Shown piece after piece: positions 3,216 through 64,000 of a stretch of DNA of 64,000 nt. The translations under genes were made by a program, and so were the position numbers. This DNA is from Candidatus Parcubacteria bacterium (GTDB lineage: Bacteria > Patescibacteriota > Minisyncoccia > Phycocordibacterales > PALSA-1337). How positions within the stretch are numbered: the first letter of the stretch is position 1; the number at the start of each line of letters is the position of its first letter. Below the pieces are notes generated by a model that saw nothing but the letters and a program-made list of their open reading frames with translations, was not told where the DNA came from and searched no databases. The stretch covers positions 54,389 through 118,388 of the forward strand of contig CAVYBN010000007.1 in the NCBI GenBank assembly GCA_963766795.1, read 5' to 3'.

Positions 3216-6200
3216 TTATTGGTGGCGCCGGTCGAAGTGCCGAGCCAAATGTTGCCGATCTGGGAAGTTCCGTATGTCTGCGCGATCGTGAGCGAAGTGG
3301 TGGCGGATTGGAGACAAGTGCCACCGATCGAATAGCAACCGCCGGTCAAGTTGAGTCCGTTTGCGAAAGTTGAAGAAGCTGTGGCTGATGTGGCGTTGAA
3401 GATGGAAGCGGAGAGGCCGGCCGGCGAATGTGGAGGTGGCGGTAGTGGAAGTCGAGACGATGTAGTTCACGGTCGGCGAAGTCGAAGAGATGAACGCGCC
3501 GGAATTATTGATGCCGAGCCAGCCTTGGCCGAAGGAGGTCTGGCCGGTGCCGCCGTACAAAACCCCAATAGATGTCGTGGCCGAGACGACGCCGGAGATC
3601 GCTTGGAGCGGTCCGGTCAGAGAGCCGATAACCACAGAACCATTGTTGTTGACTTCAAACGGCGTGGTCGTACCGTTCGAAGTCGAAGAGCTGATGGCAA
3701 ACATCGGCGCGGTAGCTGACCAGTTCGGCACGCCGATCGAGAGCGCCGCCCAAGGAGTCGAGCTTCCGATTCCCACATTGGTTCCGTTGTCGAAGATCAA
3801 AGAATTGGTGAAAGTTCCATTGGAGTTCCACTTTGGCAGATAATTGTTGGTGAGGCTTGAAACCGTTGACGAGCCGAGCAGACCAAGAGAAGAAGTGGCG
3901 CTACAGTGTAATATCCACTCAAAGCGTTGCCGAGGAGAAGCTGGCCGTAGTTTGGCGTATTGAAAGACCGGTGCCGCCGCCGGCCGCAGTGAGAGATTCC
4001 CGAGGTGGTGGCGTTGAAAGCTGAAGGAGCTTCCGGTGTTGGTGATGTATATGCCAGTGGTGAGTCCGTTATTGGTGGCGCCGGTTGAGGTGCCAAGCCA
4101 GATATTCCCCGTCTGCGCCGTTCCGTATGTCTGGGCGAGCGTCATCGAGGTGGTGGCTGACAATATTCCCAAGGACGAAGTCGCGTATTGCGTGTATCCT
4201 CCGACCGCATTGCCGATCAGCAATGACGATGAAGCTATCGAAGTCAGCCCGGTGCCGCCGTAGAGGACGCCGACAGAAGTGGTGGCCGAGACGACGCCGG
4301 CGTTGGCTTGCAAGGGACCGTTCAGCGATGAAGATAGAGTCAACGAATTGGCGCTGACTGAATTCAAAGCACTGGCTCCATTCACCGTCAAGGTTCCGAT
4401 ATTGCCATTAGTCGCGTAAAGGTTAGTTGAAGAAGCTGTGGCCGCGAAGAAATCGGTGGTGGTCGCGGCCGTGCCGGTGGCGTTCACGAAGGTGAAATTC
4501 TGCAGAGTCGAAGAGCCGGTCGAGAGAAGGTTCGGAAATTTCGCCAGACCGCCCACGGTCAGAGTGCCGGTGGCCGTGATGTCCCCGGCCGTCAGGCTTC
4601 CGGAAAAATATCCGTTGCCTTCGACCGTGAGCGGCATGAAGGGCGAGGTCGTGGCGATCCCGAGAAAGCCGAGCGTGGTGTCGAACAGGCTCTGGTAGTC
4701 TCCAAAGACCACATTGCCCTGCGAACCAAGGGAGGTGGAGCTGGCAGCCAAGACGACATTGCCTGAACCATCCGGCCCATATCCTCCTTCTATGTAGACG
4801 GCCCCTCCAAATTCACTGCCTTCTTCACCAACGCCGCCACTGGCGCTTCCGGCATTCCCTCCCAAGAGAGACAGATCACCACCGCCGCCGGCGATGTTGA
4901 AGGCGGCATTGTTAGACGCGTTGCCGCCGTTGCCGCCTTGGATCGTGACCGTGCCTCCCCAGCCGCCATTATTGAAGCCACTCCCGGTAACGACATTCTC
5001 CGAACCGCCGGTGCCGCCGAGGATGTTGACCGGACCGCCTTTGCCGCCGTTGATCTGGCCCGAGCCGGCGTTGGTGCTGACCCCGCCCAAGCCGCCGTTC
5101 AAGATGATCCCGCCGCCAATGCCGGCTATCGGAAAATTGCCGAAAGTGGAATACGAAGTGTTCCCGCCGGTCGCGCCAGTGACCAAGAGCGAAGTGGTGG
5201 CATTGGTGCCGTATTGGGTCGCAACCGACGCTGGTTGCGGGTTATTGATCATCAAGCCGCCGGTCGAGCCGAATAGGTTGAGCGTGAGCGCACCCACGGA
5301 ATTGACGACGGCCGCCAGATAGTCGGTGTTGTCGTACGCGAGATCGAGCTGCGGCACGGCCGAGGAATTGTTCTGGACCGAGAGCTTGGCGTATGGGCTC
5401 GTCGTGCCGATGCCGATATTGTTGGCGTCTTTGGTGGTCGTGCCGAAGACCAGAGTGCTGGTCGAGAAGACATTCGCGCCGTTCGCGCCGTAGAAAGCGG
5501 CCTGGCCGGCCACGCCGGTCTGGACAGAGGATGCGCCGAGCAGACCCAGTGTCGTAGTCGAGACTGACGTCCAATTGGAGCCGTTCCATTGGATCAGGCC
5601 GCCGGTTCCGAGCGATGTCCCGAGGCCGGCCGGAGCGGCGATGGTGGAGGATGAATTGACGAAATAGTTGGCCGAAGTGGTCGAGAAAGCTATGATGCCC
5701 AAGGACGAGGTGGCCATCGAAGAGACCGCGCCGTTGGTTCCGAACAGGATGCCATTCAAAGACGAGGCAAGATTGGTGGCGCCGCTGACCGTGAGCGAAT
5801 TTGCGGATACCGAATTCAAGGCCGACGCTCCATTCACGGTTAATGTTCCGATATTCCCGTTAGTCGCGTAAAGGTTAGTCGAGGAAGCCGTGGCCGCGAA
5901 GAAGCTGGTGGTGGTGGCGGCCGTGCCGGTGGCGTTCGTGAAAGTGAAATTCTGCAGAGTCGAAGAGCCGCTGACAAGGAGATTGCCGAGCGTCGCCAAG
6001 CCGCTCAAGAAAGACTTCTGCGCGTTCGGGTCGAACCAGAATTTGGCCGTGGTGGTGGAAGTGTTGCCGATGGCGATGACGTCGGTCGTGTTGTTGGAAT
6101 AGTTGACCAGTTCGCCGGAGACCTGCGAGGTGGTGGTCGACCACGAGCCGGCCGCGGCGGCGGCTCCGCCGCAACCCAGAGGATTGGCCGCGACCGTGCC

Positions 6201-9014: not shown

Positions 9015-9019
9015 AATCG

Positions 9020-10438
9020 TTAATTGACCGCGCTCGTCGAAGTCGCCTTGACCGGCACCAAGACGTACAGGAAGTCGTGCCCGGCCACCGTCCTGAAGAC
9101 CGGTTGGATCACGCCGGTGGTCCCGTCCGGATTCGGCCTTACCGTGACCGCGTCGGAGAACGAATTCTGGATGCTCTTCTCGAGCTTGACCTGATCCGAC
9201 GGCGAACCGGAGGGCGGCAGGATGACCACGCCTCCGTGCTCGGCCGTGACCTTGCCTTGTTCTCCGGGCGGGATCACCGACGAGGCGGGCGGCTCTTCCG
9301 ATCCCACGCCGACATCCGCGCTCTCGTCGACGCCGCCATTCAAAACAACCGTAGCGTTCGCATTCGCACTCGAACCGGCGCTCGAAGAAGCATTCACCGC
9401 ATCCGTGCCGCCGACCGCCAGGCTATTCGAAGGCCGGCTGGAATCATTGCTTGCGATCAGTGACAAGGCGTTCGAAGCCAAGCTGGAAGTCCCCGAGAAC
9501 ATCGAGCTCCAAGCCGAGGCTAGCGTCTCGCCGGCTCCGGCGGCGATATTCTCAATCGATTGGAGCGCGATCTGCGGCAAAGACTGGATGGCCGAAGCGG
9601 CTTCCGCGACATTGGCGGCCGAAGCATTTTCCAAAGACGAGACGCTCGAAGAAATGTCTGCGAACGTTTGAGACGGATGCAGACGGGAATTCCCCATAGC
9701 CGTCATCGCGACCAAGAAGATGACCGCCGCCAATGTCGGCGAGAGCAAAGCATACGGAGAACGGACCGCTGATGCGAATCTTTCTGTCGGAGTCGGAAGA
9801 TACGTCCACTTCCAAGCCGGCGGAGGTTCGACGGCCGGCAATTGTCGATTGATGATCGACGCCTGGGCGCGAGCATCGAGCTTGGAGATCGTGACGCGAG
9901 CGACATCGGCTAGCGTTTCGCGGATAGGGATTGAAGATTGCAGATTGAAGATTGAAGATTCACGATTGACGAATGTTTTGTCATTCCCGTGCAAACGGGA
10001 ATCCAGTGTTTTTTCTCTGATGTCAATCGTTTCACCCTGGATCCCCGCTTTCGCGGGGATGACAGAATTACTTGAAATGAGTGATTTCTGATCTTGAATT
10101 TCGGATTTCGGATTTGTCTCGGATTTCGAATTTCTGATTTCGGATTTTGTGGTCATTTCTGACATCGCAGGCTTGAGGTCAATGATCGTCGAAATTCCCT
10201 CATCAGTGAGGCCGAAAACATCCATCTTTTTGAAGATCGTTTGGTTCGGTTTTATCGACTCTTTTTTGTGACGCAAAATTGAGTTCTCGTCGACGTACCA
10301 GAAGCGTCCGACCATTCTGCAGATCAATTTTCCAGCGCGACAAAGCTGACCGACGTAGTCGTTTGAATATCCGGCTATCTCGGCAGCTCGGCGAGACGAG
10401 ATGTATTGCCTGCCTTCGATAATTAGTGAGTCGCTCAT
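9020..10438 (-). CDS. Membrane protein with an N-terminal excisionase/MerR-like HTH domain, a single TM helix (LAAVIFLVAMTAMG) and a Ser/Ala-rich extracytoplasmic tail. Its stop lies 5 bp before the giant-gene start.
   Basis: The N-terminus (RRAAEIAGYSNDYVGQLCRAGKLICRMVGRFWYV) resembles the small HTH protein at 10938..11189. Hydrophobic stretch at ~residue 225. The C-terminal 230 aa are low-complexity S/A/N-rich. The intergenic distance to 9014 is only 5 bp. Confidence 0.55.
   Translation of the reverse strand: MSDSLIIEGRQYISSRRAAEIAGYSNDYVGQLCRAGKLICRMVGRFWYVDENSILRHKKESIKPNQTIFKKMDVFGLTDEGISTIIDLKPAMSEMTTKSEIRNSKSETNPKSEIQDQKSLISSNSVIPAKAGIQGETIDIREKTLDSRLHGNDKTFVNRESSIFNLQSSIPIRETLADVARVTISKLDARAQASIINRQLPAVEPPPAWKWTYLPTPTERFASAVRSPYALLSPTLAAVIFLVAMTAMGNSRLHPSQTFADISSSVSSLENASAANVAEAASAIQSLPQIALQSIENIAAGAGETLASAWSSMFSGTSSLASNALSLIASNDSSRPSNSLAVGGTDAVNASSSAGSSANANATVVLNGGVDESADVGVGSEEPPASSVIPPGEQGKVTAEHGGVVILPPSGSPSDQVKLEKSIQNSFSDAVTVRPNPDGTTGVIQPVFRTVAGHDFLYVLVPVKATSTSAVN
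9980..10063. repeat. Family-A palindromic element, in frame in the HTH-membrane gene (VIPAKAGIQGETIDIREKTLDSRLHGNDK)
   Basis: gtcattcccgtgcaaacgggaatccag ... ctggatccccgctttcgcggggatgac. Confidence 0.85.
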
Positions 10439-18096: not shown

Positions 18097-19302
18097 TCAA
18101 TTCACCCAATCGACTTCGCCTTCGATATCGAGATCGGTCTTGTCCTTGACGCGCCGCATGAGCTCTTGCGAAAGGCTGACGACCTCCGCGGCGGAAGCGC
18201 CCGGCACGGCAACTAGGACCAAGGCTTGCTTCTCATAGACGCAAGCCTTGCCCATCTTGAGCCCTTTGACGTCGCAAACCTTATCGAGGACCCAGCCTAG
18301 CGAGACCTTGACTCGGCCGTCCGGCTCCGGAAAGCCCGGCAGGTCCGGATATTTTGCCTTCAAGAACTTGAATCTATCGGCGTCAATGATCGGATTCTTG
18401 AAGAACGAGCCGGCCGTGCCCCAGAGCTTCCAATCCGGCAATTTGCGGGAGCGCACGTCGATGACGGCCTCGCGTACCTGTTTAAGGGTAGGACGCATTG
18501 ATTGATGAGCTGGATTCGCCGACTGCGCCGTTGGATTGATTGCCGGTTGTTTGGCAACCGATCGACCTTTAATAGTTTTTTTGCCAACGAAATAGTCCTG
18601 CAAGTCTTTGTAGTCAATGTTGACATTGCCATTTTTTGAAAGACTGAAATCGACGCGCGTGATGATGTAGCGGCCTCGCTCGCGCTTGAAGAGGCTGTCG
18701 CGGTAAGCAAATCCGCAATCCGCATTCGAAAGCTCGACGAACTCCATCGAGCGCGTGTCCAGCGCGCGCACGCTCGAGATCGTATGAGCCGCTTCCGCGC
18801 CGTACGCTCCGATGTTCTGCACCGGCGTCGCTCCGACCGTGCCGGGAATGGCGGAGAGATTCTCGATGCCGTATAATCCCCGCTCTACAGCCCAGTCCAC
18901 GAGGCCGTCCCATAATTCACCGGCACCGACGGTTATTGTAACTGTGTTGTCATTCCCGCGCATGCGGGAATCCAGTGTATCACTGCTTTCGATTTCAGCA
19001 GTCTGACCCTGGATCCCCGCTTTCGCGGGGATGACAGTTTGTCCCTTGATCCCTGCTATCTCCATCTTAATGACTAATCCTTGGAATCCCTTATCGGAGA
19101 TAAGAACATTCGATCCGCCGCCGAGGACGAATATCGGCAGCTCTTTCTTCTTGGCGAAGCTGACGGCTTCGATCAATTCATCTTCATTCGAAGCACGACA
19201 AAAAAACGCGGCGGAGCCGCCGATCTTGAAAGTGGTGAATTCAGCAAGTTGGATGTTTTCTTTGATAAGCACATCAGTTAAATTCCAAATTCCAGAGATC
19301 AA
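18097..19302 (-). CDS. murB: UDP-N-acetylenolpyruvoylglucosamine reductase MurB, with an in-frame Family-A insertion
   Basis: FAD-binding N-terminus (FTTFKIGGSAAFFCRASNEDELIEAVSFAKKKELPIFVLGGGSNVL) and GTVGATPVQNIGAYG. The insertion VIPAKAGIQGQTAEIESSDTLDSRMRGNDN splits a conserved block. Confidence 0.85.
   Translation of the reverse strand: MISGIWNLTDVLIKENIQLAEFTTFKIGGSAAFFCRASNEDELIEAVSFAKKKELPIFVLGGGSNVLISDKGFQGLVIKMEIAGIKGQTVIPAKAGIQGQTAEIESSDTLDSRMRGNDNTVTITVGAGELWDGLVDWAVERGLYGIENLSAIPGTVGATPVQNIGAYGAEAAHTISSVRALDTRSMEFVELSNADCGFAYRDSLFKRERGRYIITRVDFSLSKNGNVNIDYKDLQDYFVGKKTIKGRSVAKQPAINPTAQSANPAHQSMRPTLKQVREAVIDVRSRKLPDWKLWGTAGSFFKNPIIDADRFKFLKAKYPDLPGFPEPDGRVKVSLGWVLDKVCDVKGLKMGKACVYEKQALVLVAVPGASAAEVVSLSQELMRRVKDKTDLDIEGEVDWVN
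18949..19035. repeat. Family-A palindromic element, in frame in murB
   Basis: gtcattcccgcgcatgcgggaatccag ... ctggatccccgctttcgcggggatgac. Confidence 0.9.
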
Positions 19303-42202: not shown

Positions 42203-43252
42203 TCAAGAAGCCCGACGGGTGAATATCCAGTATTTATATACAAAAAAGCTGCCGAGCGCAACCAAGCCGGCGGCAATGACTTGAGAGAGGATGTACCACA
42301 AGCCGAAAGCGTCGGTGAAGATGTAAACCAAGAGCGTATTCACGCACAGATTGAAAATCGAAACGCCGAGGTATTTGCCGGCTTGGCGGTGCATGCCGTC
42401 GGTGGCGCGATCTCTGAATGTCCAGAATTTTTGCAGGAAGAAGCTGACTCCGAAAGCGATGATGAAAGCGACCACGGCCGAGGCGAGGTACCACAGGCCG
42501 GCGAATCTCGTGAACGCGTACAGCAAGCCGATATCCACCGCAGCAGCAGTGCCGCCGGAGACGAGGTATCGGAATATCTGCTGGCGATGCGACCATAGGC
42601 CAGCCAATCGCGGCGAGATCTTGCCGAGCCGCAGGCCGAAGTTGTGTGTTTTGGTGGACATGAATGATTTGAGACGATAGCTTGGCGAGCCGGACTTGGC
42701 ATTGAAGATGTAGAATCTCTTAGCTCCGAAGCCTTCTTTGAAATGATTGTGTGAATCATCACTGATCGTTGAAGGACCGAGATCGAGCCAGTGGATGCCC
42801 TTTTCAATCGACCATTTGACCAGTTCGTCATAAAGGCGGTCATTCACGGCATGGTCCCAATAAGAAGGATCGGAGATATTGAACATCAGCAAGGCGTATT
42901 CGCTTGAAACCAAACAATAATTCACACCAACCAATTTACCAGGCTTCGATTCGTTAGCATTCGATCCGCCGCCTTTCAATTCCTCGCCGCGGTCGAACAA
43001 CGAAATCGTCACCACGCTTTCACTAAAAGCTTTTTCAAGGTCTGCGAACCATTCACGGCTTCTTGGCTTGCTTTTCAAGCGTTCCATTGATATTGAATAC
43101 AATGCATAGAAATCTTTCGGAACTGCGCCGATCTTCAAAGTGAATAAATTCTTATAAGATTTCCTGACCAGATTCCGCGTCTTGCCTTCATAAAGACCGA
43201 AGCGCTTTTCAGGATCATTCACGCCTTTCAAATCAAGCGCGTAATTAATCAT
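42203..43252 (-). CDS. FemAB/Acetyltransf_6-like (GNAT-fold) domain fused to a C-terminal GtrA-family 4-TM domain. The start is reassigned to MINYAL.
   Basis: The first 69 called codons are Ser/Arg-rich nonsense overlapping the upstream ORF. The GNAT-like core (WDHAVNDRLYDELVKWSIEKGIHWLDLGPS) is followed by a GtrA signature (VSGGTAAAVDIGLLYAFTRFAGLWYLASAVVAFIIAFGVSFFLQKFWTF). Confidence 0.5.
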   Translation of the reverse strand: MINYALDLKGVNDPEKRFGLYEGKTRNLVRKSYKNLFTLKIGAVPKDFYALYSISMERLKSKPRSREWFADLEKAFSESVVTISLFDRGEELKGGGSNANESKPGKLVGVNYCLVSSEYALLMFNISDPSYWDHAVNDRLYDELVKWSIEKGIHWLDLGPSTISDDSHNHFKEGFGAKRFYIFNAKSGSPSYRLKSFMSTKTHNFGLRLGKISPRLAGLWSHRQQIFRYLVSGGTAAAVDIGLLYAFTRFAGLWYLASAVVAFIIAFGVSFFLQKFWTFRDRATDGMHRQAGKYLGVSIFNLCVNTLLVYIFTDAFGLWYILSQVIAAGLVALGSFFVYKYWIFTRRAS

Positions 43253-43517
43253 TCGAGTTCCCGGATTGAACGGGACTGAAACTGTTGAACTGAACATTCT
43301 TATAGCGGTTCTTGATTGAGTTAATCGCTGATTCGAATTCAACCGGCTTCGCTTCGAATGCCAGCGAATAGAACCATTTGAAACCGCCGGCGAAATATTC
43401 CTTGCCATCGGTGAAGACAGGAATAGCGGAATGGTCGCCATTAACCGGCGCGACGCCATAAGCGTTTTTCAGATAATCGAGCGTCTTCTGCTCTTTAATG
43501 AGGCCAGTGATATGCAT
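43245..43517 (-). CDS. Small protein (90 aa) overlapping the FemAB::GtrA start by 8 nt (ATGATTAA). It may be the detached N-terminal lobe of the FemAB-like domain.
   Basis: Protein-like translation (MHITGLIKEQKTLDYLKNAYGVAPVNGDHSAIPVFTDGKEYFAGGFKWFYSLAFEAK...). Its frame differs by one from the downstream gene. Confidence 0.4.
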   Translation of the reverse strand: MHITGLIKEQKTLDYLKNAYGVAPVNGDHSAIPVFTDGKEYFAGGFKWFYSLAFEAKPVEFESAINSIKNRYKNVQFNSFSPVQSGNSND

Positions 43518-51368: not shown

Positions 51369-51779
51369 TCACAGATTGGCTGGGAGCGGCGAGTGGGCCG
51401 GTTTTAAATCGACTGTCGGAACCGAGGCTTTCGAATCGGCCATAATCGGCTTCTGTGCAATCACTTGATTCAAGACAACAAACGGCTTGTGAGTCACACC
51501 TGCATTCGAGGCGGGCGAGGCAGAGCTTCCGAAGAGCCGAGGACTGTCCGAGCGAGCAGAGATCGAAGCCTTTAAAGAAGGGTTTGCGTCAGCCGCGCCT
51601 TCTTTGTCATCCCCGCGAAAGCGGGGATCCAGTGTCTTTGTTGTTTGACCCTGGATTCCCGCTTGCGCCTTCGCTTCGCTTCGGCTTGCGGGAATGACAA
51701 CAACATCCTTCGCGGGACTGCTTCGAATCTCTGCCTTCTTCACCGTCGGCTCATGGAACTTGACTATCCCCTCCTCCAC
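51369..51779 (-). CDS. Pro/Ala/Ser-rich low-complexity protein containing a Family-A element in frame. It overlaps the VirD4-like gene end by 29 nt.
   Basis: VIPASRSEAKAQAGIQGQTTKTLDPRFRGDDK, then S/P/A-rich sequence. Confidence 0.3.
   Translation of the reverse strand: MEEGIVKFHEPTVKKAEIRSSPAKDVVVIPASRSEAKAQAGIQGQTTKTLDPRFRGDDKEGAADANPSLKASISARSDSPRLFGSSASPASNAGVTHKPFVVLNQVIAQKPIMADSKASVPTVDLKPAHSPLPANL
51606..51698. repeat. Family-A palindromic element (a variant with a ~25-bp insert in the right arm)
   Basis: gtcatccccgcgaaagcggggatccag ... ctggattcccgcttgcgccttcgcttcgcttcggcttgcgggaatgac. Confidence 0.8.
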
Positions 51780-53031
51780 TTCTGCGCGCGGCTTCGGAGA
51801 ACTGCTCGCGCGAAGCGGCGATGATGTCCGTGAAATACGACGTGCTCGGATGCGCGATCGGCGGCAGAGTCATGGCCGAGAATGGCGGCGAAGTCAGGCC
51901 GTCGATCATCAGCTTCAGGTATATCTGCGCAAAGCCCAGATTGACCAGATCCTCGATCTCGAACTGCGGCGTGAACTCATTCTCGAGCATCTCCGCGTCG
52001 TTGGCACCGATGCGGAAGAGGATCATCGTGCCGACGTTGCCGAAGACCGCCGGCCGCACGAACTCGTCCATCTGCTCGACGTATTGGTGGGCGATGGTCA
52101 GGTTGAGCTTGTATTTGCGGGCTTCGGACAGGATGTCCGCGAATGACGCGTTGGCGAAGTTCTGGAATTCGTCGACGAACAGATAGAAGTTCGGCAGCAT
52201 CTTCATGACGCGGTCCGGCACGTCGGCGCGCGACATCGCCGCCAGGTATATCTTGGTCACCAGAAGTCCCCCGAGGAGCTTCATGTTCTCGTCGCCGATC
52301 TTGCCCTTGGACAGGTTGATGATCATGATCTTCTTCTTGTCCATGGCCTCGCGGAAATCGAACGACGAATGCGGCTGGCCGATCATGTTCCTGATCAGCG
52401 GGTTGGCCGTGAATTGTCCGACCTTATTCTGGATGGCCGGCACGGCCTCGGCGGCCTGACGCTCGGTGTAGCTGGCGAACTCCTTGGTCCAGAAAGCTTT
52501 CACTGAAGGGTCTTTTATGTATGAGACGATGTCATTCCTGTATGCCTTGTCCGAGAGCATCCTATTCACGCCCAAAAGAGTCGAGCCCGGTGCTTCGAGG
52601 AGCGCCAGGAGAGTATTGGTCAGAATGTATTCCATGCGAGCCGACCAAGCGTCTACCCAGATCTTCTTGAAAGTGCTCATCAGGCCGGAGACGACCAGAT
52701 GGCGCTTGTCGGGATCGATCGATTCGAGGACGTTGAATGAGATCGGGTATTCGGTGTCGAAAGGCGCGATGTAAATGACATCGCGGATGCGGGACTGCGG
52801 CACATATTCCATGAGGAGGTCGGCGGTCTTGCCGTGCGGGTCGATGAAGCACATGCCCTCGCCGTTCTGGATATCCTGGACGGCCATGTTCTCGAGCAAG
52901 GTGGATTTGCCCATGCCGGTCTTGCCGATGACATAGACGTGGCGGGTGCGATCCTTGGCCTTGATGCCGAACTTCACCCGCTTGTTGCGGGCATCCGTCT
53001 CGGCGAAATATGTGATCTTATTCTCGTCCAT
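51751..53031 (-). CDS. Soluble VirD4/TraD/TraG-like (TrwB_AAD_bind or HerA/FtsK-like) P-loop ATPase
   Basis: Walker A VIGKTGMGKST, Walker B LFVDEFQNF, and a coupling-protein-like AHQYVEQM...GNVGTMILFRIG block. No N-terminal TM segment. Confidence 0.65.
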   Translation of the reverse strand: MDENKITYFAETDARNKRVKFGIKAKDRTRHVYVIGKTGMGKSTLLENMAVQDIQNGEGMCFIDPHGKTADLLMEYVPQSRIRDVIYIAPFDTEYPISFNVLESIDPDKRHLVVSGLMSTFKKIWVDAWSARMEYILTNTLLALLEAPGSTLLGVNRMLSDKAYRNDIVSYIKDPSVKAFWTKEFASYTERQAAEAVPAIQNKVGQFTANPLIRNMIGQPHSSFDFREAMDKKKIMIINLSKGKIGDENMKLLGGLLVTKIYLAAMSRADVPDRVMKMLPNFYLFVDEFQNFANASFADILSEARKYKLNLTIAHQYVEQMDEFVRPAVFGNVGTMILFRIGANDAEMLENEFTPQFEIEDLVNLGFAQIYLKLMIDGLTSPPFSAMTLPPIAHPSTSYFTDIIAASREQFSEAARRSGGGDSQVP

Positions 53032-56976: not shown

Positions 56977-57076
56977 GAGCGAGAGAAACATGCCCGTGAA
57001 GGACTTTGCCAACAAAACGAATACCAGGAATATTGGCACGGGGGCACCGTCCTGAATGGGCATGTTTCTCTCGCTC
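56977..57076. repeat. Family-D MITE-like element with 19-bp perfect terminal inverted repeats, intergenic
   Basis: gagcgagagaaacatgccc ... gggcatgtttctctcgctc. Confidence 0.8.
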
Positions 57077-57122: not shown

Positions 57123-58490
57123 ATGGAACAGCCGAAACAGACCGTCATATATGTGACCCGCGAGATCGAGCGAGCCATGGGAATGGCCCCGAACGAGCAT
57201 TACCGCATCGTCGCCAACCGCACGCCTTACGGCGAAACCATTAAAAAGCAATACCCCGATTTCGTCACGCTCGTCGAAAGCCCGACGCCCAAGCTCCTTG
57301 GCACCGGCGAACTTCTGGACCATCCAAAAACTGCCGCTGTCTATGAAGAGATCGCTAATTCTTTTATCACCCCCGCGAAGGCAACGGTCCAGGATCGATC
57401 TGCTGATTCTCCTGTCATCCCCGCGAAAGCGGGGATCCAGGGTCAGACCACTGGAAATGGTAATACACTGGATTCCCGTTTTCACGGGAATGACAAAACG
57501 ATTCCCAATTTCCTCGTCTTCAAGAACACCGCGCGCATCGAGCCGATTGCGCACGCGCACGGCTGGAAGCTCGTGAATCCTCTGGCGTCGCTCTCGGAGC
57601 AAGTCGAGAACAAGATCAGCCAAGTCGCGTGGCTCGAAAATTCAGCCGAATACTATCTGCCGAAGCATCAGGTAGGACCGCTCAAGAGGATGACTTGGAC
57701 CGGCGAGCCCTTCGTCCTCCAATGGGGCCACGGTCACACCGGCGACGGCACCATCCTCGTCAATTCGCAGGCAGAGCTCGACAAGTGGAAGGCGCGATTC
57801 CCCTATCGCATGACGCGCGTGAGCGCTCTCGTGAGCGGCCCTTCATTCACGGTCAACGCACTGGTCGCCGGCGACGATGTCCTCATCGGCAACCCGAGCT
57901 ATCAGATCACCGGCATGGCGCCGTTCACCGACAGCCGCTTCGCCACCGTCGGCAATGACTGGAGCGCGGTCCGCAACATCCTCTCCGAAGCCGAGCTGCG
58001 TTCGATCGAGAATCTGGCCAAAGACATCGGCATGCGTCTCAAAGACAGCGGTTGGCGCGGCCTCTATGGCGTGGACATCATGCGCGACGACGAACGCGGC
58101 CGTATCTTCCTCATCGAAGTCAATGCCCGCCAGCCCGCTTCCACGCCTTTCGAGTCATTCTTACAGGAATCAGAGCGCGTCAAGGGAGCTGCCGGTTTGA
58201 CAATATTTGAAGCTCATTTGAAGGCCTTGCTCGGCGAAGCCATCACCGAACCTTTGATCAAGATCAAAGACGGTTCGCAGATCATCCAGCGCGTCACCAA
58301 TGCCGTCAGGTCAGTGCCTGCCAACGCAGCCAGTGCTCTTGAATCAGCCGGCTATCAAGTCGTTTCTTACGCCAACACTGAACTGAACGCCGACCTCCTG
58401 CGCATTCAGTCCATGAATGGCATCATGGCTGGACATGATGTGTTCAATGAGAAAGGAAAGGAGATCGTCAAGATCGTTTCAAGTAAATAA
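57123..58490 (+). CDS. ATP-grasp family ligase with an in-frame Family-A insertion near the N-terminus
   Basis: RIFLIEVNARQP(A) is the ATP-grasp C-terminal catalytic motif. Insertion VIPAKAGIQGQTTGNGNTLDSRFHGNDK. The start is reassigned from 57006 to the ATG at 57123 because the upstream codons lie in the Family-D element. Confidence 0.65.
   Translation: MEQPKQTVIYVTREIERAMGMAPNEHYRIVANRTPYGETIKKQYPDFVTLVESPTPKLLGTGELLDHPKTAAVYEEIANSFITPAKATVQDRSADSPVIPAKAGIQGQTTGNGNTLDSRFHGNDKTIPNFLVFKNTARIEPIAHAHGWKLVNPLASLSEQVENKISQVAWLENSAEYYLPKHQVGPLKRMTWTGEPFVLQWGHGHTGDGTILVNSQAELDKWKARFPYRMTRVSALVSGPSFTVNALVAGDDVLIGNPSYQITGMAPFTDSRFATVGNDWSAVRNILSEAELRSIENLAKDIGMRLKDSGWRGLYGVDIMRDDERGRIFLIEVNARQPASTPFESFLQESERVKGAAGLTIFEAHLKALLGEAITEPLIKIKDGSQIIQRVTNAVRSVPANAASALESAGYQVVSYANTELNADLLRIQSMNGIMAGHDVFNEKGKEIVKIVSSK
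57368..57494. repeat. Family-A palindromic element with an extra partial left arm (57368-57395)
   Basis: cacccccgcgaaggcaacggtccagg...gtcatccccgcgaaagcggggatccag ... ctggattcccgttttcacgggaatgac. Confidence 0.85.
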
Positions 58491-58559
58491 AGCCATTCTT
58501 CATTCGCAGATTCGCCATTCGTAGCATTCGCATTGGATTCGTAGATTAGCATTATATAT

Positions 58560-59393
58560 ATGAACACCAAGACCCTCACACCGCGCGCTCTGTCAGTCAT
58601 CGACCAGTACCTTCATTTCAAGGTCGGCGCCGGCCTGTCTGCCGGCAGACAGGCCGTCTGCTCCGTTCCCTATTTCAATAACAAGACGGTCAGAGCCAGA
58701 GCTTCGCTTCGCGCCGAGATCGGCAAGGGCAGTCCCAAGGATATTTACGACGAGGCGCAAGCCATGCTAATCAAACAACATGTTTCGATCGACACACTTG
58801 CCGATGAATCATTGAAAAAGATGCTCGCTGATAATAACATCGGCATCGATTGTTCAGGTTTCGCTTATTATGTCCTCAATGCTGAAAGCGCTGAAGCTGG
58901 CAAAGGGCCGCTTGATAAGCACATCTCATTCGTTAATTGCAAAGGGATCCTCGGCAAGATGCGCGCAAAGTTCAGGCCGGCCGAGAATTGCGACGTCACT
59001 ACGCTCGCAGACGATAAGAACAGCCGGATCATTCCTTTAAATGAAACTTCACCTGGAGACATTGTCACTATGATTGGCGATCAATCGTCCTCTCCTCTAA
59101 TCTCCAATCTCCAATCTCCAATCTCTAGTGAACGTGATCATATTTTAATCATCCACCAAGTCGACTATCAGAACTTCTCGGCCTTCAAGCTCTATTATTC
59201 GCACGCTGTCGCTTATCCCGAGGATGGGCTTTATGGCAGCGGAGTAAAGCAAGGAACCGTTGAGATCACTGACTCCAAGAAAACGTTAACCGAGCAGGAA
59301 TGGATCGAGAACGGCAAGAGCGGCGATGCCAACCGCATCTATTTGCGTGCATTGAAATCGAAGACGGAATTACGTCGTTTGAAGTGGCTCTAA
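58560..59393 (+). CDS. NlpC/P60 (C40)-like cysteine peptidase candidate
   Basis: GIDCSGFAYYVLN (catalytic-Cys context), PGDIVTM and HILIIHQV (His) in Cys...His order. It contains a (ctccaat)n microsatellite-encoded SPLISNLQSPISS. Confidence 0.45.
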   Translation: MNTKTLTPRALSVIDQYLHFKVGAGLSAGRQAVCSVPYFNNKTVRARASLRAEIGKGSPKDIYDEAQAMLIKQHVSIDTLADESLKKMLADNNIGIDCSGFAYYVLNAESAEAGKGPLDKHISFVNCKGILGKMRAKFRPAENCDVTTLADDKNSRIIPLNETSPGDIVTMIGDQSSSPLISNLQSPISSERDHILIIHQVDYQNFSAFKLYYSHAVAYPEDGLYGSGVKQGTVEITDSKKTLTEQEWIENGKSGDANRIYLRALKSKTELRRLKWL

Positions 59394-59414
59394 CATCGTG
59401 GTATTGTTTGAGGA

Positions 59415-60542
59415 ATGATAAGCATCCTCCAAGGCACGGCCGACCTGGCCTATATCCTCGGTTTTGCGCTGGTCGGCGCCGTCATAGCTTTCCTGTGGGC
59501 GCCGCTCCTTACCAAAGCACTGTACCGATTCAAGGTCATCAAAGCTCCCAAGACCGAGCTTGTGGCCCTCGGTTCGCAGGCATACAAAGCCAACACGCCG
59601 GTCATGGGCGGCTTGCTCGTCATCATCACGGTCGCGCTCGTCACCTACCTCTTCAACTGGTCGCGCTCATTCACGTACGTGCCGATCGGCGTGATGCTCA
59701 TCTCCGCGGCTTTGGGCGCCGTCGACGACCTCATGAATGTCTACGGCGTCGAACGGCGTTCGCGCAAATTCGGCCATGTCCTGACGCTTATCCGAGTCCA
59801 TCATGACTGGAAGATGCGCGTCTGGTACGCGCTCACCCTGCCCTGGACGGCTTTCAAGCGCCTGTCGGTCTGGTTCGGCTCGCGGCCCGGCAAGGGCGTC
59901 TTCGTGCATGAGAAGCTCATCCTGCAATTCATCGCCGGAGCCATCACCGCCTGGTGGGTCTACGAGAAGCTCGGGCCGGCCTGGCACTTCATCTACTTCT
60001 CGTTCGGCTACTCCGTCAATGCCGGCTGGCTGATCGTGCCGATCATGGTCCTGGTCGTGATGTTCACCGCTAATGCCGTCAATATCGCCGATGGCATGGA
60101 CGGCCTCTCCGGCGGCATGCTCATCACCACCTTCAGCGCGCTCACATTCCTGTCATGGATCAACGGCTTCGGCGAGATCGCCATCCTGAATGCCACCACA
60201 GTGGGCGCTCTGGCGGCTTACACCTATTTCAACATCAAGCCGGCGCGCTTCATGATGGGCGACATTGGCTCACTGGGCCTTGGTGCGCTCCTGGCTGTGA
60301 ATGCCCTAGCCATCGGCGAGCTAGGCTCGCTCTTCTTCTTGGGCTTCATGTTCTATATCGAGGCCTTTTCGGTCATCATCCAGGTCGGCTCGCGCTACGC
60401 ATTCGGCCGCAAGGTCTTCCGCATGGCGCCTCTTCATCACCACTTCGAGCTCAAAGGCTGGAGCGAGGAGAAGACCGTCATGCGCTTCTGGGTCATCCAT
60501 TTCATCTTCGTGGTCTTCGGATTCTGGTTGGCGCTCCACTAA
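59415..60542 (+). CDS. mraY: Phospho-N-acetylmuramoyl-pentapeptide transferase MraY
   Basis: NTPVMGGLLVI, AVDDLMNV, NAVNIADGMDGL, FMGDIGSLGLGALLA and PLHHHFEL conserved MraY blocks. Ten TM helices. Confidence 0.85.
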   Translation: MISILQGTADLAYILGFALVGAVIAFLWAPLLTKALYRFKVIKAPKTELVALGSQAYKANTPVMGGLLVIITVALVTYLFNWSRSFTYVPIGVMLISAALGAVDDLMNVYGVERRSRKFGHVLTLIRVHHDWKMRVWYALTLPWTAFKRLSVWFGSRPGKGVFVHEKLILQFIAGAITAWWVYEKLGPAWHFIYFSFGYSVNAGWLIVPIMVLVVMFTANAVNIADGMDGLSGGMLITTFSALTFLSWINGFGEIAILNATTVGALAAYTYFNIKPARFMMGDIGSLGLGALLAVNALAIGELGSLFFLGFMFYIEAFSVIIQVGSRYAFGRKVFRMAPLHHHFELKGWSEEKTVMRFWVIHFIFVVFGFWLALH

Positions 60543-60643
60543 AAGTATAAAGGTATAAAAGAAGAAAGGTATAAAGGTATAATCGCAACATCGCTTCTCG
60601 CATACTTTTATACTTAAATACCTTAATACTTTTATACTTATTC

Positions 60644-61327
60644 ATGACTTACCTTCACTGGGACGAAACAACAATCATCGACTTCTCCGAGAAGAATATT
60701 TCCGCCATGTACGACTGTGGCTATGTTTTCACGCGTATCGGTAAAGGAGTGATGCAACAGACGCGCTCGGTGCGCATCGATTTGAGCAAGTTCGAATTGA
60801 CGAGCGAGAATCGGCGCATCCTAAAAAAGGCTGCCCTTGATGGATTTGAGACGATTTCAACACCTTGGGCACATTACGATCTGCGTGTCGGTAAGCTAGC
60901 TAAGGATTTTTATACTGCCAAATTTGGTCCGAATATCATGAGCGCCTTTAAAGTGAAAGAAATGATGACTAATCCTGCGCGCAACAATTTTAATGAAGTG
61001 CTCATATTCTCAAGCGATTCAACGGCGATTGGTTGGACTATCTGTTACAAAAATACCGAGCTCCTTCATTATTCGTATCCCTTCTATGATTTAAATGTGT
61101 CGTCAAAAGATATGGGACTTGGCATGATGATCCGCGCGATTCAATATGCAAGGGATTCTGACGTGAAATACGCCTACCTCGGATCCCTTCAGCGCCCCGG
61201 CGACACCTATAAGCTCCAATTCGCAGGCCTGGAATGGTTCGACGGCGGGCCTGATGGTTCGAATAAGTGGTCGACAGATATTGATAGAGCGAAAAGAATC
61301 CTATCATCTGCTACTCTTGAATCCTGA
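60644..61327 (+). CDS. ATE_C-domain (arginyl/leucyl-tRNA--protein transferase, Bpt/Ate1-like) aminoacyl-tRNA-dependent transferase candidate
   Basis: LIFSSDSTAIGWTICYKNTELLHYSYPFYD...KYAYLGSLQRPGDTYKLQFAGLEWFDG matches the ATE_C pattern (..D.lsdglS.VY.fydP....SLG...yvYLGY......YK..F.P.E). There is no Cys-rich ATE_N. Confidence 0.5.
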   Translation: MTYLHWDETTIIDFSEKNISAMYDCGYVFTRIGKGVMQQTRSVRIDLSKFELTSENRRILKKAALDGFETISTPWAHYDLRVGKLAKDFYTAKFGPNIMSAFKVKEMMTNPARNNFNEVLIFSSDSTAIGWTICYKNTELLHYSYPFYDLNVSSKDMGLGMMIRAIQYARDSDVKYAYLGSLQRPGDTYKLQFAGLEWFDGGPDGSNKWSTDIDRAKRILSSATLES

Positions 61328-61330
61328 ATC

Positions 61331-62761
61331 ATGAATCTTGAATCTTCTCAAAACCTGCCTGAACACATCCACGTCATCGGCATTTGCGGCGTGGCAACGA
61401 GCGCTTTAGCCATAGCTTTCCACAAGGCCGGCGTCAAAGTCACCGGCTCCGACAAAGGCTTCTTCCCGCCGGTCTCGACCGAGCTTGAAAAAGCCGGCAT
61501 CCCCTTCTACGCCGGCTGGCATCCTGAAAAAATCGCAGAGAATGGCATGCCTGATCTCATCATCGCCGGTGCCAGCGGTACGAGCTTGTCCAATCCAGAG
61601 ATCATGTACACGAAGGAAAAAGGCATTTCTCTTCTTTCGTTCGCAGAAGCCATCGGAAAATATGTCGTAAGAAAAAATTCCGTCGTTTGCACTGGAACTT
61701 GGGGCAAGACGACGATTTCGGCCTTGCTTTCATTTATCTTGTCGGAAGCCGGCATGAGGCCGAGCTATTTCACCGGCGGTGTTTCGCTATCACATCCGAC
61801 AGGGGTTATTTCCGATTCAGACTGGAGCGTCGTCGAAGGAGACGAATATCAAGTCTCGATCTCCGACCACCGCCCAAAATTCGTCTATTATGCCCCAACA
61901 CATCTTCTGTTAACTTCAGTCTCCTGGGACCATGCGGACCTGTATCCGACTGAAAAGAGTTATTTCGATACATTCGAAAAGCTCGTTAAAGAAGTCCCAA
62001 AAAATGGCTGCATCGTGGCTTGTATTGACAACGAAGGCGTTCAAAGAACATTAAAGAGTGCGAACGATTTGACCACAGGCCGCAAGGTCGTAAAATATGG
62101 CCGAAATGAATCAGCCGATTATTCATATCATTCACTGACACAAACAGAGAATGGCCTGCGTTTCCAGATAAGCAATGGCAATGAATGCTATGAGATAGTC
62201 TCTCCGATGCTCGGCGGCTTCAATGCGCAGAATATCACGGCGGCTTTCGCCATGGCACGCACGATCGGAATACCAGCCGACAAGATCATCGCCTCCATCA
62301 AGAACTTCAGAGGCATCAAGCGCCGCTTTGAGAAACGATTTGAAGGCGAGATCACTGTCTTCGATTGCCATGCTCCCACACCGGAAAAAGCTTCTGCCGT
62401 CCTGAAAGAATTACGCGCGATCTATAGTGGCAAGATCATCGCCATCTTTGAGCCGAACATCGGTGGCCGTGAACGCGAAGCAGCCGCTAAGTATTCGAAT
62501 GCTTTCAAAGATGCCGACACTGTGCTCATCCCGCGTCTGACAAAGCTGAAAGTTGCCGAAAATGATTCGAATCAACCGATGGAAGGTATTGAATTAGCCA
62601 CGGTCATTTCAAAGACTCACAAAGACTGTCATTGCATCGAAGACGACGCCGAGCTCGTTGAAACGGCCGTATCTCAAACAAAAAAAGGAGACATCATCGT
62701 CTTCCTGGGCTCGCATGGATTCAGAGGAATGATAGAAGAAACGGTGAAGAGATTGGCTTGA
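61331..62761 (+). CDS. mpl: Mur-ligase family enzyme closest to Mpl (UDP-MurNAc:L-Ala-gamma-D-Glu-meso-DAP ligase). MurC cannot be excluded.
   Basis: HIHVIGICGVATSALAIAFHKAGVKVTGSDKGFFPPVSTELEKAGIPFYAGWHPEKI and GDEYQVSISDHRPKFVYYAPTHLLLTSVSWDHADLY align block for block with E. coli Mpl ([72 protein letters not shown]). Confidence 0.75.
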   Translation: MNLESSQNLPEHIHVIGICGVATSALAIAFHKAGVKVTGSDKGFFPPVSTELEKAGIPFYAGWHPEKIAENGMPDLIIAGASGTSLSNPEIMYTKEKGISLLSFAEAIGKYVVRKNSVVCTGTWGKTTISALLSFILSEAGMRPSYFTGGVSLSHPTGVISDSDWSVVEGDEYQVSISDHRPKFVYYAPTHLLLTSVSWDHADLYPTEKSYFDTFEKLVKEVPKNGCIVACIDNEGVQRTLKSANDLTTGRKVVKYGRNESADYSYHSLTQTENGLRFQISNGNECYEIVSPMLGGFNAQNITAAFAMARTIGIPADKIIASIKNFRGIKRRFEKRFEGEITVFDCHAPTPEKASAVLKELRAIYSGKIIAIFEPNIGGREREAAAKYSNAFKDADTVLIPRLTKLKVAENDSNQPMEGIELATVISKTHKDCHCIEDDAELVETAVSQTKKGDIIVFLGSHGFRGMIEETVKRLA

Positions 62762-62768
62762 TTCCTTT

Positions 62769-62852
62769 GTCATTCCCGCGAAAGCGGGAATCCAGGGTAC
62801 TACCACAAACGCCCGTAGTCATACACTGGACCCCCGCTTTCGCGGGGGTGAC
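62769..62852. repeat. Family-A palindromic element, intergenic (convergent gene ends)
   Basis: gtcattcccgcgaaagcgggaatccag ... ctggacccccgctttcgcgggggtgac. Confidence 0.85.
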
Positions 62853-62860
62853 AAAGTTGT

Positions 62861-63058
62861 CTATTTTCCTTCATCGACGATCACAGTTTTGACCTCATTG
62901 TCCGCCGTGATCTCCTTGACCAGGAGCGTCATACCGCAGTGGTTGCATTCGATGACCATGCCGGCCGCGATATTCGGATAGCGCGAAAGGTCGAGGACAT
63001 TCTTGCATTCCGGGCAGACGCAGACCAGCTTTGATGATTCGGACCTTTGTTGGATCAT
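62861..63058 (-). CDS. Small zinc-ribbon protein with a LysW-like fold (65 aa)
   Basis: CPECKNVLDLSRYPNIAAGMVIECNHCGMTLLVKEITADNE is a CxxC-18-CxxC ribbon like the LysW/ArgW carriers. The C-terminus ends ...VDEGK rather than a terminal Glu. Confidence 0.35.
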   Translation of the reverse strand: MIQQRSESSKLVCVCPECKNVLDLSRYPNIAAGMVIECNHCGMTLLVKEITADNEVKTVIVDEGK

Positions 63059-63097: not shown

Positions 63098-64000
63098 ATG
63101 AATAAGTCAGCAAAAGACGCTTCGGATGGTGCGAAGGCCGCTCCTATTACGCCGCTTGAAGCCTATCCCAAGCTGGCAAAAGCCATAGGCGTCAATCAAT
63201 TGTTCTTCAAGCGCGAGGACCTGCATCCTTACGGCTCTCACAAAGGCCGCTCCATTCCGGTCATGATCGACCATTATTTGAAGGCCGGTGAGCGCCGATT
63301 CGCCATCTCTTCGTCTGGAAACGCGGCATTGGCGGCGGCACTTTATGTTGCTGTCATTCCCGCAAAAGCGGGAATCCAGGGTCTAGCTGCTGAAAACAAT
63401 CCGATCAGCCTCGATATCTTCATCGGCCAGCATGCCGCGCCGCACAAAGCGCAACGATTGAAAGAACTCGCTGACGAGCATATCCGCGTCCTCATCAAAG
63501 AGCGGCCATTGCAAGCCTTGACGCAGGCCGTGAATGAGAGCGCGCGGAGTTTGAGGCAATCGACTGACGATCTGGCTTTGATCGGTTATGAATCTTTGGC
63601 ACAGGAATTAGCGGCAGCAACAGCACGGAGGTCGGACCTCCGTAGGTCGGACCTAAGTATCTTCATCGGCACTTCTTCCGGCACCACGGCTCAAGCTTTG
63701 GCTGCATATTTCTTAAAAGAAAAGCTCCCCATCCAAATCCACATCGTCCAGACTTCTTCATGCCATCCTTTGGCGGACGCATTCGAATCGTACGATGGAC
63801 CAGACGAAGCTTCACTGGCTGATGCCATCGTTGACATGACCGCGCGGCGCAAAGAAGCTCTGATCCCGCTCATCAAAAAGAGCGGCGGCCGTGCCTGGGT
63901 CGCAACTAATGACGACATCAAAGCCGCACAGGAACTGACGCTCAAGAATACTGGCTTGGAGATATCCACTAACAGCGCGTTATCAGTAGCTGGAGCGATG
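63098..64000 (+). CDS. Fold-type-II PLP-dependent enzyme (threonine synthase/dehydratase-like), partial: it runs off the window end. It contains a Family-A half-element in frame.
   Basis: FFKREDLHPYGSHKGRS (PLP-lysine context) and SSSGNAALAAAL. The frame is open from the ATG at 63098 to the window edge. Insertion VIPAKAGIQG at 63353-63380. Confidence 0.5.
   Translation, partial: MNKSAKDASDGAKAAPITPLEAYPKLAKAIGVNQLFFKREDLHPYGSHKGRSIPVMIDHYLKAGERRFAISSSGNAALAAALYVAVIPAKAGIQGLAAENNPISLDIFIGQHAAPHKAQRLKELADEHIRVLIKERPLQALTQAVNESARSLRQSTDDLALIGYESLAQELAAATARRSDLRRSDLSIFIGTSSGTTAQALAAYFLKEKLPIQIHIVQTSSCHPLADAFESYDGPDEASLADAIVDMTARRKEALIPLIKKSGGRAWVATNDDIKAAQELTLKNTGLEISTNSALSVAGAM

Follow-up and report, generated by a model that had tools for sequence, protein, structure and literature searches.

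Why does the translocase gene mraY, in a 64-kb stretch of DNA from a Candidatus Parcubacteria bacterium (hereafter the window), stand among genes for a ligase resembling the murein-recycling enzyme Mpl, an ATP-grasp ligase, a putative peptidase, a protein resembling aminoacyl-tRNA-dependent transferases, a small zinc-ribbon protein and a pyridoxal-phosphate (PLP) enzyme, and what might these genes do together? The cytoplasmic Mur pathway of peptidoglycan synthesis (MurA to MurF and MraY) is considered near-universal and ranks among the major targets of antibiotics. The reading that we favor, with a probability of about 0.5, is that the module takes the place of MurC and MurD at the start of the stem peptide (L-Ala-D-Glu), working partly off the nucleotide and with the assistance of a carrier protein and of tRNA, and that the Mpl-type ligase attaches the product. 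No description of such a module was found in the searchable literature, which covers few papers from subscription journals.

Gene order around mraY in two classes

Five open reading frames of the forward strand occupy positions 57123-62761, with gaps of 69, 21, 101 and 3 nt between them. They encode, in this order, an ATP-grasp carboxylate-amine ligase (57123-58490; Pfam ATP-grasp_3 and the fold of an AlphaFold2 model), a 277-residue Cys-His protein of the NlpC/P60 clan (58560-59393; invariant Cys and His, weak Pfam match; hereafter P60-like), the phospho-MurNAc-peptide translocase MraY (59415-60542; PF00953, TIGR00445), a 227-residue protein resembling aminoacyl-tRNA-dependent transferases of the ATE/Bpt fold (60644-61327; hereafter ATE-like), and an Mpl-type UDP-MurNAc ligase of the MurC/Mpl family with three Mur domains (61331-62761), whose start codon follows the stop of the ATE-like gene by 3 nt. 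These five frames, proposed from the letters alone in what we call the sequence-only reading, are all present. That reading overlooked two adjacent genes, one for a LysW-like zinc-ribbon protein, putatively of the amino-group-carrier type (62861-63058, reverse strand; Zn_ribbon_LysW), and one for a fold-type-II PLP enzyme resembling threonine synthases and dehydratases (63098-64000, forward strand; detected by tblastn and continuing past the window end), and their presence alters the mechanistic picture drawn from five genes. Besides the ligase the window contains no Mur ligase, and no ddl, alr, murA, ftsW or murG; MurB, which acts in UDP-MurNAc synthesis, is encoded at 18097-19302 on the reverse strand (FAD_binding_4 and MurB_C domains; tblastn with the MurB of the Microgenomatia locus L107, 8e-29). 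MraY scores 84.9 bits (7.7e-24) against PF00953, has TIGR00445 as its best family (163 bits, under the cutoff of 192), and shows sequence identities of 62-88%, in most cases 75-84%, among 80 species.

Searching a single genome for each species yielded 80 loci in the class Paceibacteria, where the homologues carry names such as Candidatus Taylorbacteria, Paceibacterota and Parcubacteria, which places the source of the window in that class. The order rsmI (reverse strand), ATP-grasp, P60-like, MraY, ATE-like and ligase is syntenic in about 70-80 of these species-level genomes. However, the whole 20-kb neighborhood is syntenic, including unrelated genes (rsmI, DUF4015, VirD4-like, radC, pyruvate kinase). 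Because the unrelated flanks are just as syntenic, Paceibacteria synteny alone was rejected as proof of function, and a second lineage was therefore sought. In 56 of the 80 loci (L002-L081) a divergent MurD-like gene, the only one near the cluster, lies roughly 3-5 kb downstream of the ligase gene (e.g., L007:13354-14685, reverse strand). Its product scores 134 bits against TIGR01087, for which the cutoff is 212. A low-identity alignment to Escherichia coli MurD shows the P-loop, N271, R302 and D317 retained, but counterparts of E157 and H183, which are Mg ligands, and of K198, which is carbamylated, appear to be missing; judging from these apparent active-site losses, the protein may be catalytically altered or inactive.

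The second lineage emerged when a metagenome collection was queried with the sister branch of the ATE-like family. It yielded contigs in which the ATE-like gene lies between murE (upstream) and an Mpl-like ligase gene (downstream), and which extend into full division and cell wall (dcw) clusters. A protein search with the ATP-grasp of this lineage identified it as Microgenomatia, under the names Shapirobacteria, Woesebacteria and Gottesmanbacteria. Four long loci with gene calls were compared (L173, L174, L175 and L176, on contigs of 84-331 kb and spanning murE or ftsI through ftsZ). In L173 and L176 the genes run ftsI (L173 only), murE, ATE-like, Mpl-like, murB, murA, (ddl), murF, mraY and P60-like, then LysW-like (reverse strand), PLP, ATP-grasp, ftsW, murG and onward to ftsA and ftsZ; L175 matches this order from ATE-like onward, and L174 is reshuffled with the same genes.

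Neither murC nor murD occurs in these four dcw clusters, whose sole Mur ligases are MurE, MurF and the Mpl-like protein. With NCBIfam models the Microgenomatia MurE proteins score 367-412 bits (cutoff 257), the MurF proteins reach 243-288 bits, at or just under the 288.6 of their model, and the cutoffs for Ddl, MurA and MurB are exceeded; murE is present in all clusters where that part was read and ddl in three of the four. The suggestion of the sequence-only reading that such reduced genomes lack a full murC-F set thus has to be narrowed, as the set is not broadly missing, and the presence of murE, ddl and murF in the same clusters indicates that stem positions 3-5 are made de novo.

The mraY-murD-ftsW adjacency is normally very stable, and murC normally lies beside murB. 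In the Microgenomatia clusters the block of P60-like, LysW-like, PLP and ATP-grasp genes fills the mraY-ftsW junction, which is the murD slot, and the ATE-like and Mpl-like pair lies beside murB, in the usual slot of murC; the succession of the Mpl-like gene, murB, murA and, where present, ddl recurs in L107, L173, L175 and L176. Coupling between frames is tight. The ATP-grasp stop and the ftsW start overlap in L173 and L175, and in L176 the stop precedes the start by 4 nt. The ATE-like gene shows translational coupling either with murE on its upstream side or with the Mpl-like gene on its downstream side. Six non-canonical genes therefore cluster in two classes within the Candidate Phyla Radiation (CPR) at 23-36% protein identity and in a different order, which is good evidence, on the ground of gene order, that they probably share a function in peptidoglycan precursor synthesis. 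The link of the original five genes to that synthesis, first proposed from the window, was borne out by this conserved clustering and by the dcw placement in Microgenomatia.

The MurE proteins of Microgenomatia are short (406-410 residues) and start at about profile position 89-92 (L173:178-1410, L174:3153-4373, L107:3537-4760), so that about 88 N-terminal profile positions are missing. These correspond to domain 1, the UDP-binding domain of MurE. The gene upstream leaves too little room (75 nt in L173) for a start to have been mis-called. MurF is likewise shortened in L107 and L173, and is not in L174.

The proteins of the module

All three Mur ligase domains (N, M and C) are present in the ligase by Pfam. 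Pairwise BLAST gives 177 bits and 30% identity over 475 residues with E. coli Mpl, against 109 bits and 27% with E. coli MurC, and the top sequence match in the PDB is the Mpl structure of Psychrobacter arcticus (3HN7). Features common to the ligase and Mpl and not found in MurC include GICG...FPPVS (YPPMS in Mpl), EPxx in place of the MurC QPHR, and a GFxG C-terminus. In the alignment a 7-residue insert, EYQVSISDHRPKF, is shared with Mpl and has no MurC counterpart. Das et al. (PMC3060825) described (S/T)AFFDKRSK as a middle-domain motif of Mpl alone, not found in MurC to MurF. The insert of the ligase falls exactly at the position of this motif, where the segment VSISDHRPK has the same insert length and conserves its D, R and K, i.e., 3 of 9 motif residues. 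Over this segment two Mpl structures are the best PDB matches, and all 11 MurC chains compared, including those of Thermotoga maritima, Mycobacterium and Pseudomonas, are 5-6 residues shorter. A neighbor-joining tree with a small reference set (3 Mpl, 4 MurC and a MurD outgroup) joined the ligase to Mpl in 87% of 300 bootstraps. The phylogeny thus fell on the Mpl side, and the earlier claim that the ligase is nearer to Mpl than to MurC finds agreement in BLAST, in the Mpl-only indel and motifs and in the tree, and disagreement in the NCBIfam profiles discussed below.

By its sequence features the ligase is Mpl-like, yet not a canonical Mpl. It shares with the Mpl proteins of E. coli, P. arcticus (3HN7) and Neisseria meningitidis (3EAG) the three Mur domains, the insert, and the PPxS, EPxx and GFxG motifs. 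It differs from them in being only about 30% identical, in changed peptide-site residues (AHHP and EPRSNT) and in its essential dcw/mraY context rather than a recycling context, and its peptide substrate probably differs. To our knowledge, Mpl is not known from the phyla that carry the module. Mpl itself accepts L-Ala-D-Glu, although poorly, as well as longer peptides (PMC3060825).

The ATE-like protein just misses the Pfam cutoff for ATE_C (PF04377, 22.9 bits against 25) and scores 36 bits with the NCBIfam arginyltransferase model NF002346, whose cutoff is 170. Structure comparison agrees with the sequence-only reading in assigning it a GNAT-type aminoacyl-tRNA transferase fold, as in ATE1 and Bpt, and its structural neighbors include FemX, FemA and MprF. 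The invariant and near-invariant columns of 25 orthologues contain no Cys and no ATE_N match was found, hence no Cys-rich N-terminal signature; nor was there a match to the FemAB family (PF02388), which sets the protein apart from FemX, MurM and MprF, and the protein does not have the two-GNAT architecture of about 330-420 residues. The family is small, with 385 representatives among 1.84 billion proteins. An ordinary N-end-rule Bpt, which the profile assignment proposed in the sequence-only reading was meant to distinguish, was ruled out because of the missing conserved Cys, the scores far under family cutoffs, the tiny family size, and neighbors that are murE, mraY, Mpl-like or alr genes in four lineages rather than N-degron components.

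In a third contig set the ATE-like gene follows murE. The fourth set comprises 58 high-GC metagenome loci (L111, L114-L144 and L146-L172; e.g., L122:4648-5835 and L169:7516-8319), for which a soil or peat origin is guessed from the sample set. Here the ATE-like gene comes directly after a bona fide alr in 41 loci (TIGR00492, 341 bits), and 23 loci have a gene for a PurD-like ATP-grasp enzyme some 2.5 kb upstream, so that a trio of PLP enzyme (alr), ATP-grasp and ATE-like recurs. Elsewhere in the family, the 809-residue protein P0282 fuses an ATE-like N-terminal domain to a module resembling phosphoenolpyruvate-utilizing enzymes (a PPDK_N-type region and a mobile His domain, recognized by eye), a fusion that may be a Rosetta-stone hint at a partner activity. 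In another CPR lineage (L089:6240-8568 and L090:320-2660) the ATE-like gene is immediately followed by a class IIb aminoacyl-tRNA synthetase gene, LysRS-like by motif inspection, which may hint at the aminoacyl-tRNA donor or be a coincidence. More distant relatives were uninformative: P0276 has a eukaryote-like context, P0235 a CHAT-protein context, and P0176 lies beside a lysRS-like gene, by motif inspection only.

The LysW-like protein, of 65 residues, is encoded in 63 of the 80 Paceibacteria loci and its tail always reads ...VDEGK. Zn_ribbon_LysW (PF21344) is the best Pfam family in 24 of 24 members of the clade (best E-value 3.5e-8). The Microgenomatia proteins exceed the Pfam cutoff at 36-48 bits, match the NCBIfam LysW/ArgW model at 2e-9, and have tails ending in ...EEEK or, in one case, EEKG. 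On these profile matches the small zinc ribbon is probably a member of the LysW family. In LysW/LysX/LysK systems an ATP-grasp enzyme loads the carrier and a hydrolase releases the product. Like those of lysine and arginine biosynthesis in Thermus, Sulfolobus and Thermococcus, the module has a small CxxC...CxxC zinc ribbon whose C-terminal tail is acidic, together with an ATP-grasp ligase and a hydrolase putatively able to cleave gamma-glutamyl amides. It differs from them in its tails (EEEK or VDEGK against EDWGE), in an ATP-grasp that always clusters with the LysW-like gene yet is not of the RimK/LysX type, in lacking LysZ, LysY and LysJ homologues, in its cell-wall gene context, and in a putative release enzyme of the NlpC/P60 type against the M20-type LysK.

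The ATP-grasp protein passes the Pfam ATP-grasp_3 cutoff (28.2 bits against 23.2), and its AlphaFold2 model has the ATP-grasp fold with a predicted confidence (pLDDT) of 90. The sequence-only reading had called it a ligase of either the D-Ala-D-Ala-ligase (Ddl) or the peptide-ligase type. The ATP-grasp assignment stands, and structurally the protein is of the PurK/PylC/L-amino-acid-ligase type; a role as Ddl substitute was rejected because a bona fide ddl resides in the same Microgenomatia clusters and Ddl ranks low in the structural comparison.

For the P60-like protein the window copy has no significant Pfam match (NLPC_P60, PF00877, 15 bits against 23). NLPC_P60 is nevertheless the top weak match in 23 of 25 orthologues (best 5e-5), with CHAP and Amidase_6 also matched. 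C98 (in a DCSGF-type motif), S99 and H194 are invariant among the 25 orthologues and H215 nearly so, and the motifs recur in the Microgenomatia copies; against PDB profiles, a match to LytE at the catalytic Cys was non-significant (E-value 0.7). The earlier designation as a putative NlpC/P60-like peptidase fits this pattern. No signal peptide was seen by inspection, which points to the cytoplasm, and the protein is a putative gamma-glutamyl isopeptidase.

The PLP enzyme of the window is 64% identical by tblastn to a conserved neighbor family found in 62 Paceibacteria loci. NCBIfam threonine synthase and dehydratase models match far under their cutoffs, and the L107 orthologue matches PALP at 2.4e-49.

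A proposed route and its alternatives

The scheme that we propose uses every component in the chemistry typical of its family. First, the ATP-grasp enzyme would load Glu onto the LysW-like carrier at its tail, which is acidic and terminates in Lys; conservation of this Lys hints at a bond between gamma-Glu and epsilon-Lys, with the alpha-amine left free. Second, the PLP enzyme would supply or generate the D-configuration. Third, the ATE-like protein would move L-Ala from Ala-tRNA to the free alpha-amine of the N-terminal Glu, an acceptor of the ATE/Bpt type. Fourth, the P60-like enzyme, from a family specialized in gamma-D-glutamyl amide bonds, would cut the gamma-glutamyl isopeptide link and free L-Ala-D-Glu. 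Fifth, the Mpl-type ligase would join the released peptide en bloc to UDP-MurNAc. Finally, canonical MurE, Ddl/MurF and MraY would complete the lipid-linked precursor. In a variant, Glu would be bound through its alpha-amine to a carboxylate of the carrier, as in canonical LysW chemistry, and MurE and perhaps MurF would extend the carrier-bound peptide before its release, alanylation and en-bloc ligation, which would fit the lack of domain 1 in Microgenomatia MurE. Of the two scenarios that the sequence-only reading had offered, the better fit is the one in which part of the stem peptide is assembled off UDP-MurNAc and then joined in a single step, given four dcw clusters without murC and murD. 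The specific carrier scheme, in which the LysW-like protein and its partners replace MurC, MurD and possibly glutamate racemase in two CPR classes, is put forward tentatively and with less than even confidence. The substrates, the order of the steps and a lack of murC and murD in the rest of the genomes are what we infer.

Two known systems bear comparison with this route. In archaeal pseudomurein synthesis (pMurC/D/E, a MraY-like protein and an ATP-grasp enzyme) the logic resembles the one proposed here, with the peptide made off the muramyl sugar and joined later, and both systems combine Mur-type ligases, an ATP-grasp enzyme and a MraY homologue. However, NCBIfam pseudomurein models match the module weakly (at most 78 bits against cutoffs of 450-610), its hosts are bacteria with MurA and MurB, and we know of no carrier protein or tRNA-dependent enzyme in pseudomurein synthesis. 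In Xanthomonas, MurD2 and MurL ligate L-Glu and then epimerize it on the nucleotide, a precedent for rewiring the D-Glu step and bypassing MurI, but this system retains MurC and a MurD paralogue, works entirely on UDP-MurNAc, and has no carrier, ATP-grasp or tRNA step.

Published gene lists speak for the proposal to a limited degree. A table of core genes of OD1 lists murA, B, E, F, G and J and omits murC and murD, and FemAB-type genes are reported absent from the operon-bearing clade (Nelson and Stegen, PMC4508563); since the table also omits mraY, its gaps are weak evidence. The same source reports murE in C7867-002, whose genome carries the operon (locus L021), and murF in sister genomes (Table S1). 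Several points weigh against the proposal. The dcw loci read without murC and murD number four, and these genes, as well as murI, may lie elsewhere in the genomes. The ligase occupies the murC slot and may simply be the MurC of its lineage, and NCBIfam ranks it higher as murC (TIGR01082, 244.1 bits, cutoff 335.1; 235-268 for the Microgenomatia orthologues) than as mpl (TIGR01081, 200.3 bits, cutoff 388.7; 221-233). This ranking was set aside as a verdict because pairwise scores, indels and tree contradict it and because the mpl model draws on a narrow taxon set. The LysW-like copy of the window reaches 18.0 bits, under the 27-bit Pfam cutoff, and its tail ends in Lys, unlike the Glu of known LysW proteins; no tail in either class has the EDWGE-type end. 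In structure the ATP-grasp resembles LysX less closely than it does PurK, PylC and L-amino-acid ligases, and we know of no precedent for a racemase or epimerase in the ThrC-like subfamily. Finally, the ATE-like relatives beside alr in the high-GC contigs have no Mpl-like neighbor, so the ATE-like family need not always pair with an Mpl-type ligase.

The alternative that survives best, possible though rather unlikely, is a canonical Mur pathway with divergent enzymes and an accessory module. The Mpl-like protein would then be a MurC adding L-Ala, with MurD encoded elsewhere or represented by the MurD-like neighbor; the ATE-like protein would be a FemX analogue branching from the position-3 amine of the nucleotide precursor, and the ATP-grasp, PLP, LysW-like and P60-like proteins would make or attach a side-chain or bridge amino acid. 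This account is consistent with the murC-like placement of the ligase beside murB, with its higher murC profile score, and with the MurD-like gene that 56 of 80 Paceibacteria loci carry about 3 kb farther downstream. It is also consistent with FemX, FemA and MprF among the structural neighbors of the ATE-like protein, with alr beside relatives of that protein in another lineage, with the reported absence of FemAB-type genes from the operon-bearing C7867 clade (PMC4508563), and with the frequency at which CPR proteins fall under curated cutoffs, as MraY does here. It has to explain, however, why murD is absent from four dcw clusters in which it is normally fixed between mraY and ftsW, why the Paceibacteria MurD-like protein appears to lack the Mg-ligand and carbamyl-Lys equivalents, and why the ligase carries an Mpl-only insert that is missing in all 11 MurC structures compared, and it leaves the carrier protein and the isopeptidase without a role.

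Salvage of stem peptides, the other scenario of the sequence-only reading, is improbable. Muropeptides of a host or of the cell itself would be imported, trimmed by the P60-like protein, repaired by the ATP-grasp and ATE-like proteins and re-attached by the Mpl-type ligase, supplying an auxotrophic episymbiont, chiefly or as a supplement, with its D-amino acids and diamino acid. The Mpl-type signatures of the ligase would suit such a role, as would membership of the P60-like protein in the NlpC/P60 clan, which includes gamma-D-Glu-diamino-acid endopeptidases of recycling such as YkfC. The lack of amino-acid biosynthesis reported for CPR bacteria (PMC4508563) points in the same direction. Yet no permease, AmpD-type amidase or LD-carboxypeptidase gene was seen in or near the cluster in either lineage, so that the scenario gains no specific support; murE, ddl and a near-cutoff murF stand in the same clusters, and the LysW-like carrier, the tRNA-dependent transferase and the replacement in the murD slot are left unexplained. 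That the genes are unrelated neighbors without shared function, held together by slow genome rearrangement, is scarcely credible, for although unrelated Paceibacteria genes are equally syntenic, the same six genes cluster again in the dcw region of a second class at 23-36% identity, with overlapping or nearly abutting frames.

Flanking features and meaning of the module

The window also carries a palindromic repeat element of about 95 nt, with arms of about 42 nt and the core TGTCATTCCCGCGAAAGCGGGAATCCAGGGT, at three sites. At 57356-57497 (repeat families D1/D3 and I1/I2) it lies in frame within a variable linker of the ATP-grasp gene, where it adds ...VIPAKAGIQ...LDSRFHGNDK...; this insertion is a gap in all orthologues, and the model has a pLDDT below 50 at residues 96-118. 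A complete unit with two 42-nt arms (62759-62856; I3, D1/D3) lies between the convergent ligase and LysW-like genes and is possibly a bidirectional terminator. The third copy (63343-63390) is in frame in the PLP gene and adds ...VIPAKAGIQ..., an insertion that orthologues do not have. Between the divergent rsmI and ATP-grasp genes is an inverted repeat (56977-57076; arms of 34 nt, 85% complementary, loop of 32 nt) that may be a regulatory structure. At 60541-60582, in the 101 nt that separate mraY from the ATE-like gene, an 8-nt unit (AAAGGTATAA-like) occurs four times in tandem.

Farther upstream, a VirD4/TraD-like type IV coupling protein gene (51751-53031, reverse strand) is conserved at 74-91% identity across about 44 related species, above the level of the cell-wall enzymes. 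Its open reading frame has 426 residues, against an orthologue median of about 647, as would be expected if the gene were truncated or frameshifted or began at another start. The interval 25454-50849 is a surface-polysaccharide locus, with glycosyltransferases (GT1/GT4, GT2, GT11), several methyltransferases, a polysaccharide deacetylase and a truncated-looking UDP-glucose dehydrogenase, and includes a fusion of GtrA with a GNAT domain (FemAB-like Acetyltransf_6) at 42203-43459 on the reverse strand. Positions 1-10438 have a G+C content of 0.56-0.60, against about 0.50, with a positive GC skew, and encode proteins of 1932 and 472 residues without Pfam match.

Two CPR classes of ultra-small bacteria, together a large share of bacterial diversity, may thus start the stem peptide without MurC and MurD. 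If true, this would be a new biochemical solution to an essential step and an undescribed start to an otherwise textbook pathway. It would give LysW-like carriers and ATE/Bpt-fold enzymes a new cellular role, link Mpl-type recycling ligases to de novo synthesis in evolution, and call for caution in genome-based claims of a complete canonical peptidoglycan pathway in CPR bacteria. In its strong form, with an N-terminally shortened MurE, and perhaps MurF, acting on a carrier-bound peptide, the stem peptide would begin in a fundamentally different way. The module is a concrete and testable way into the chemistry of cell walls in organisms of which almost none are in culture.

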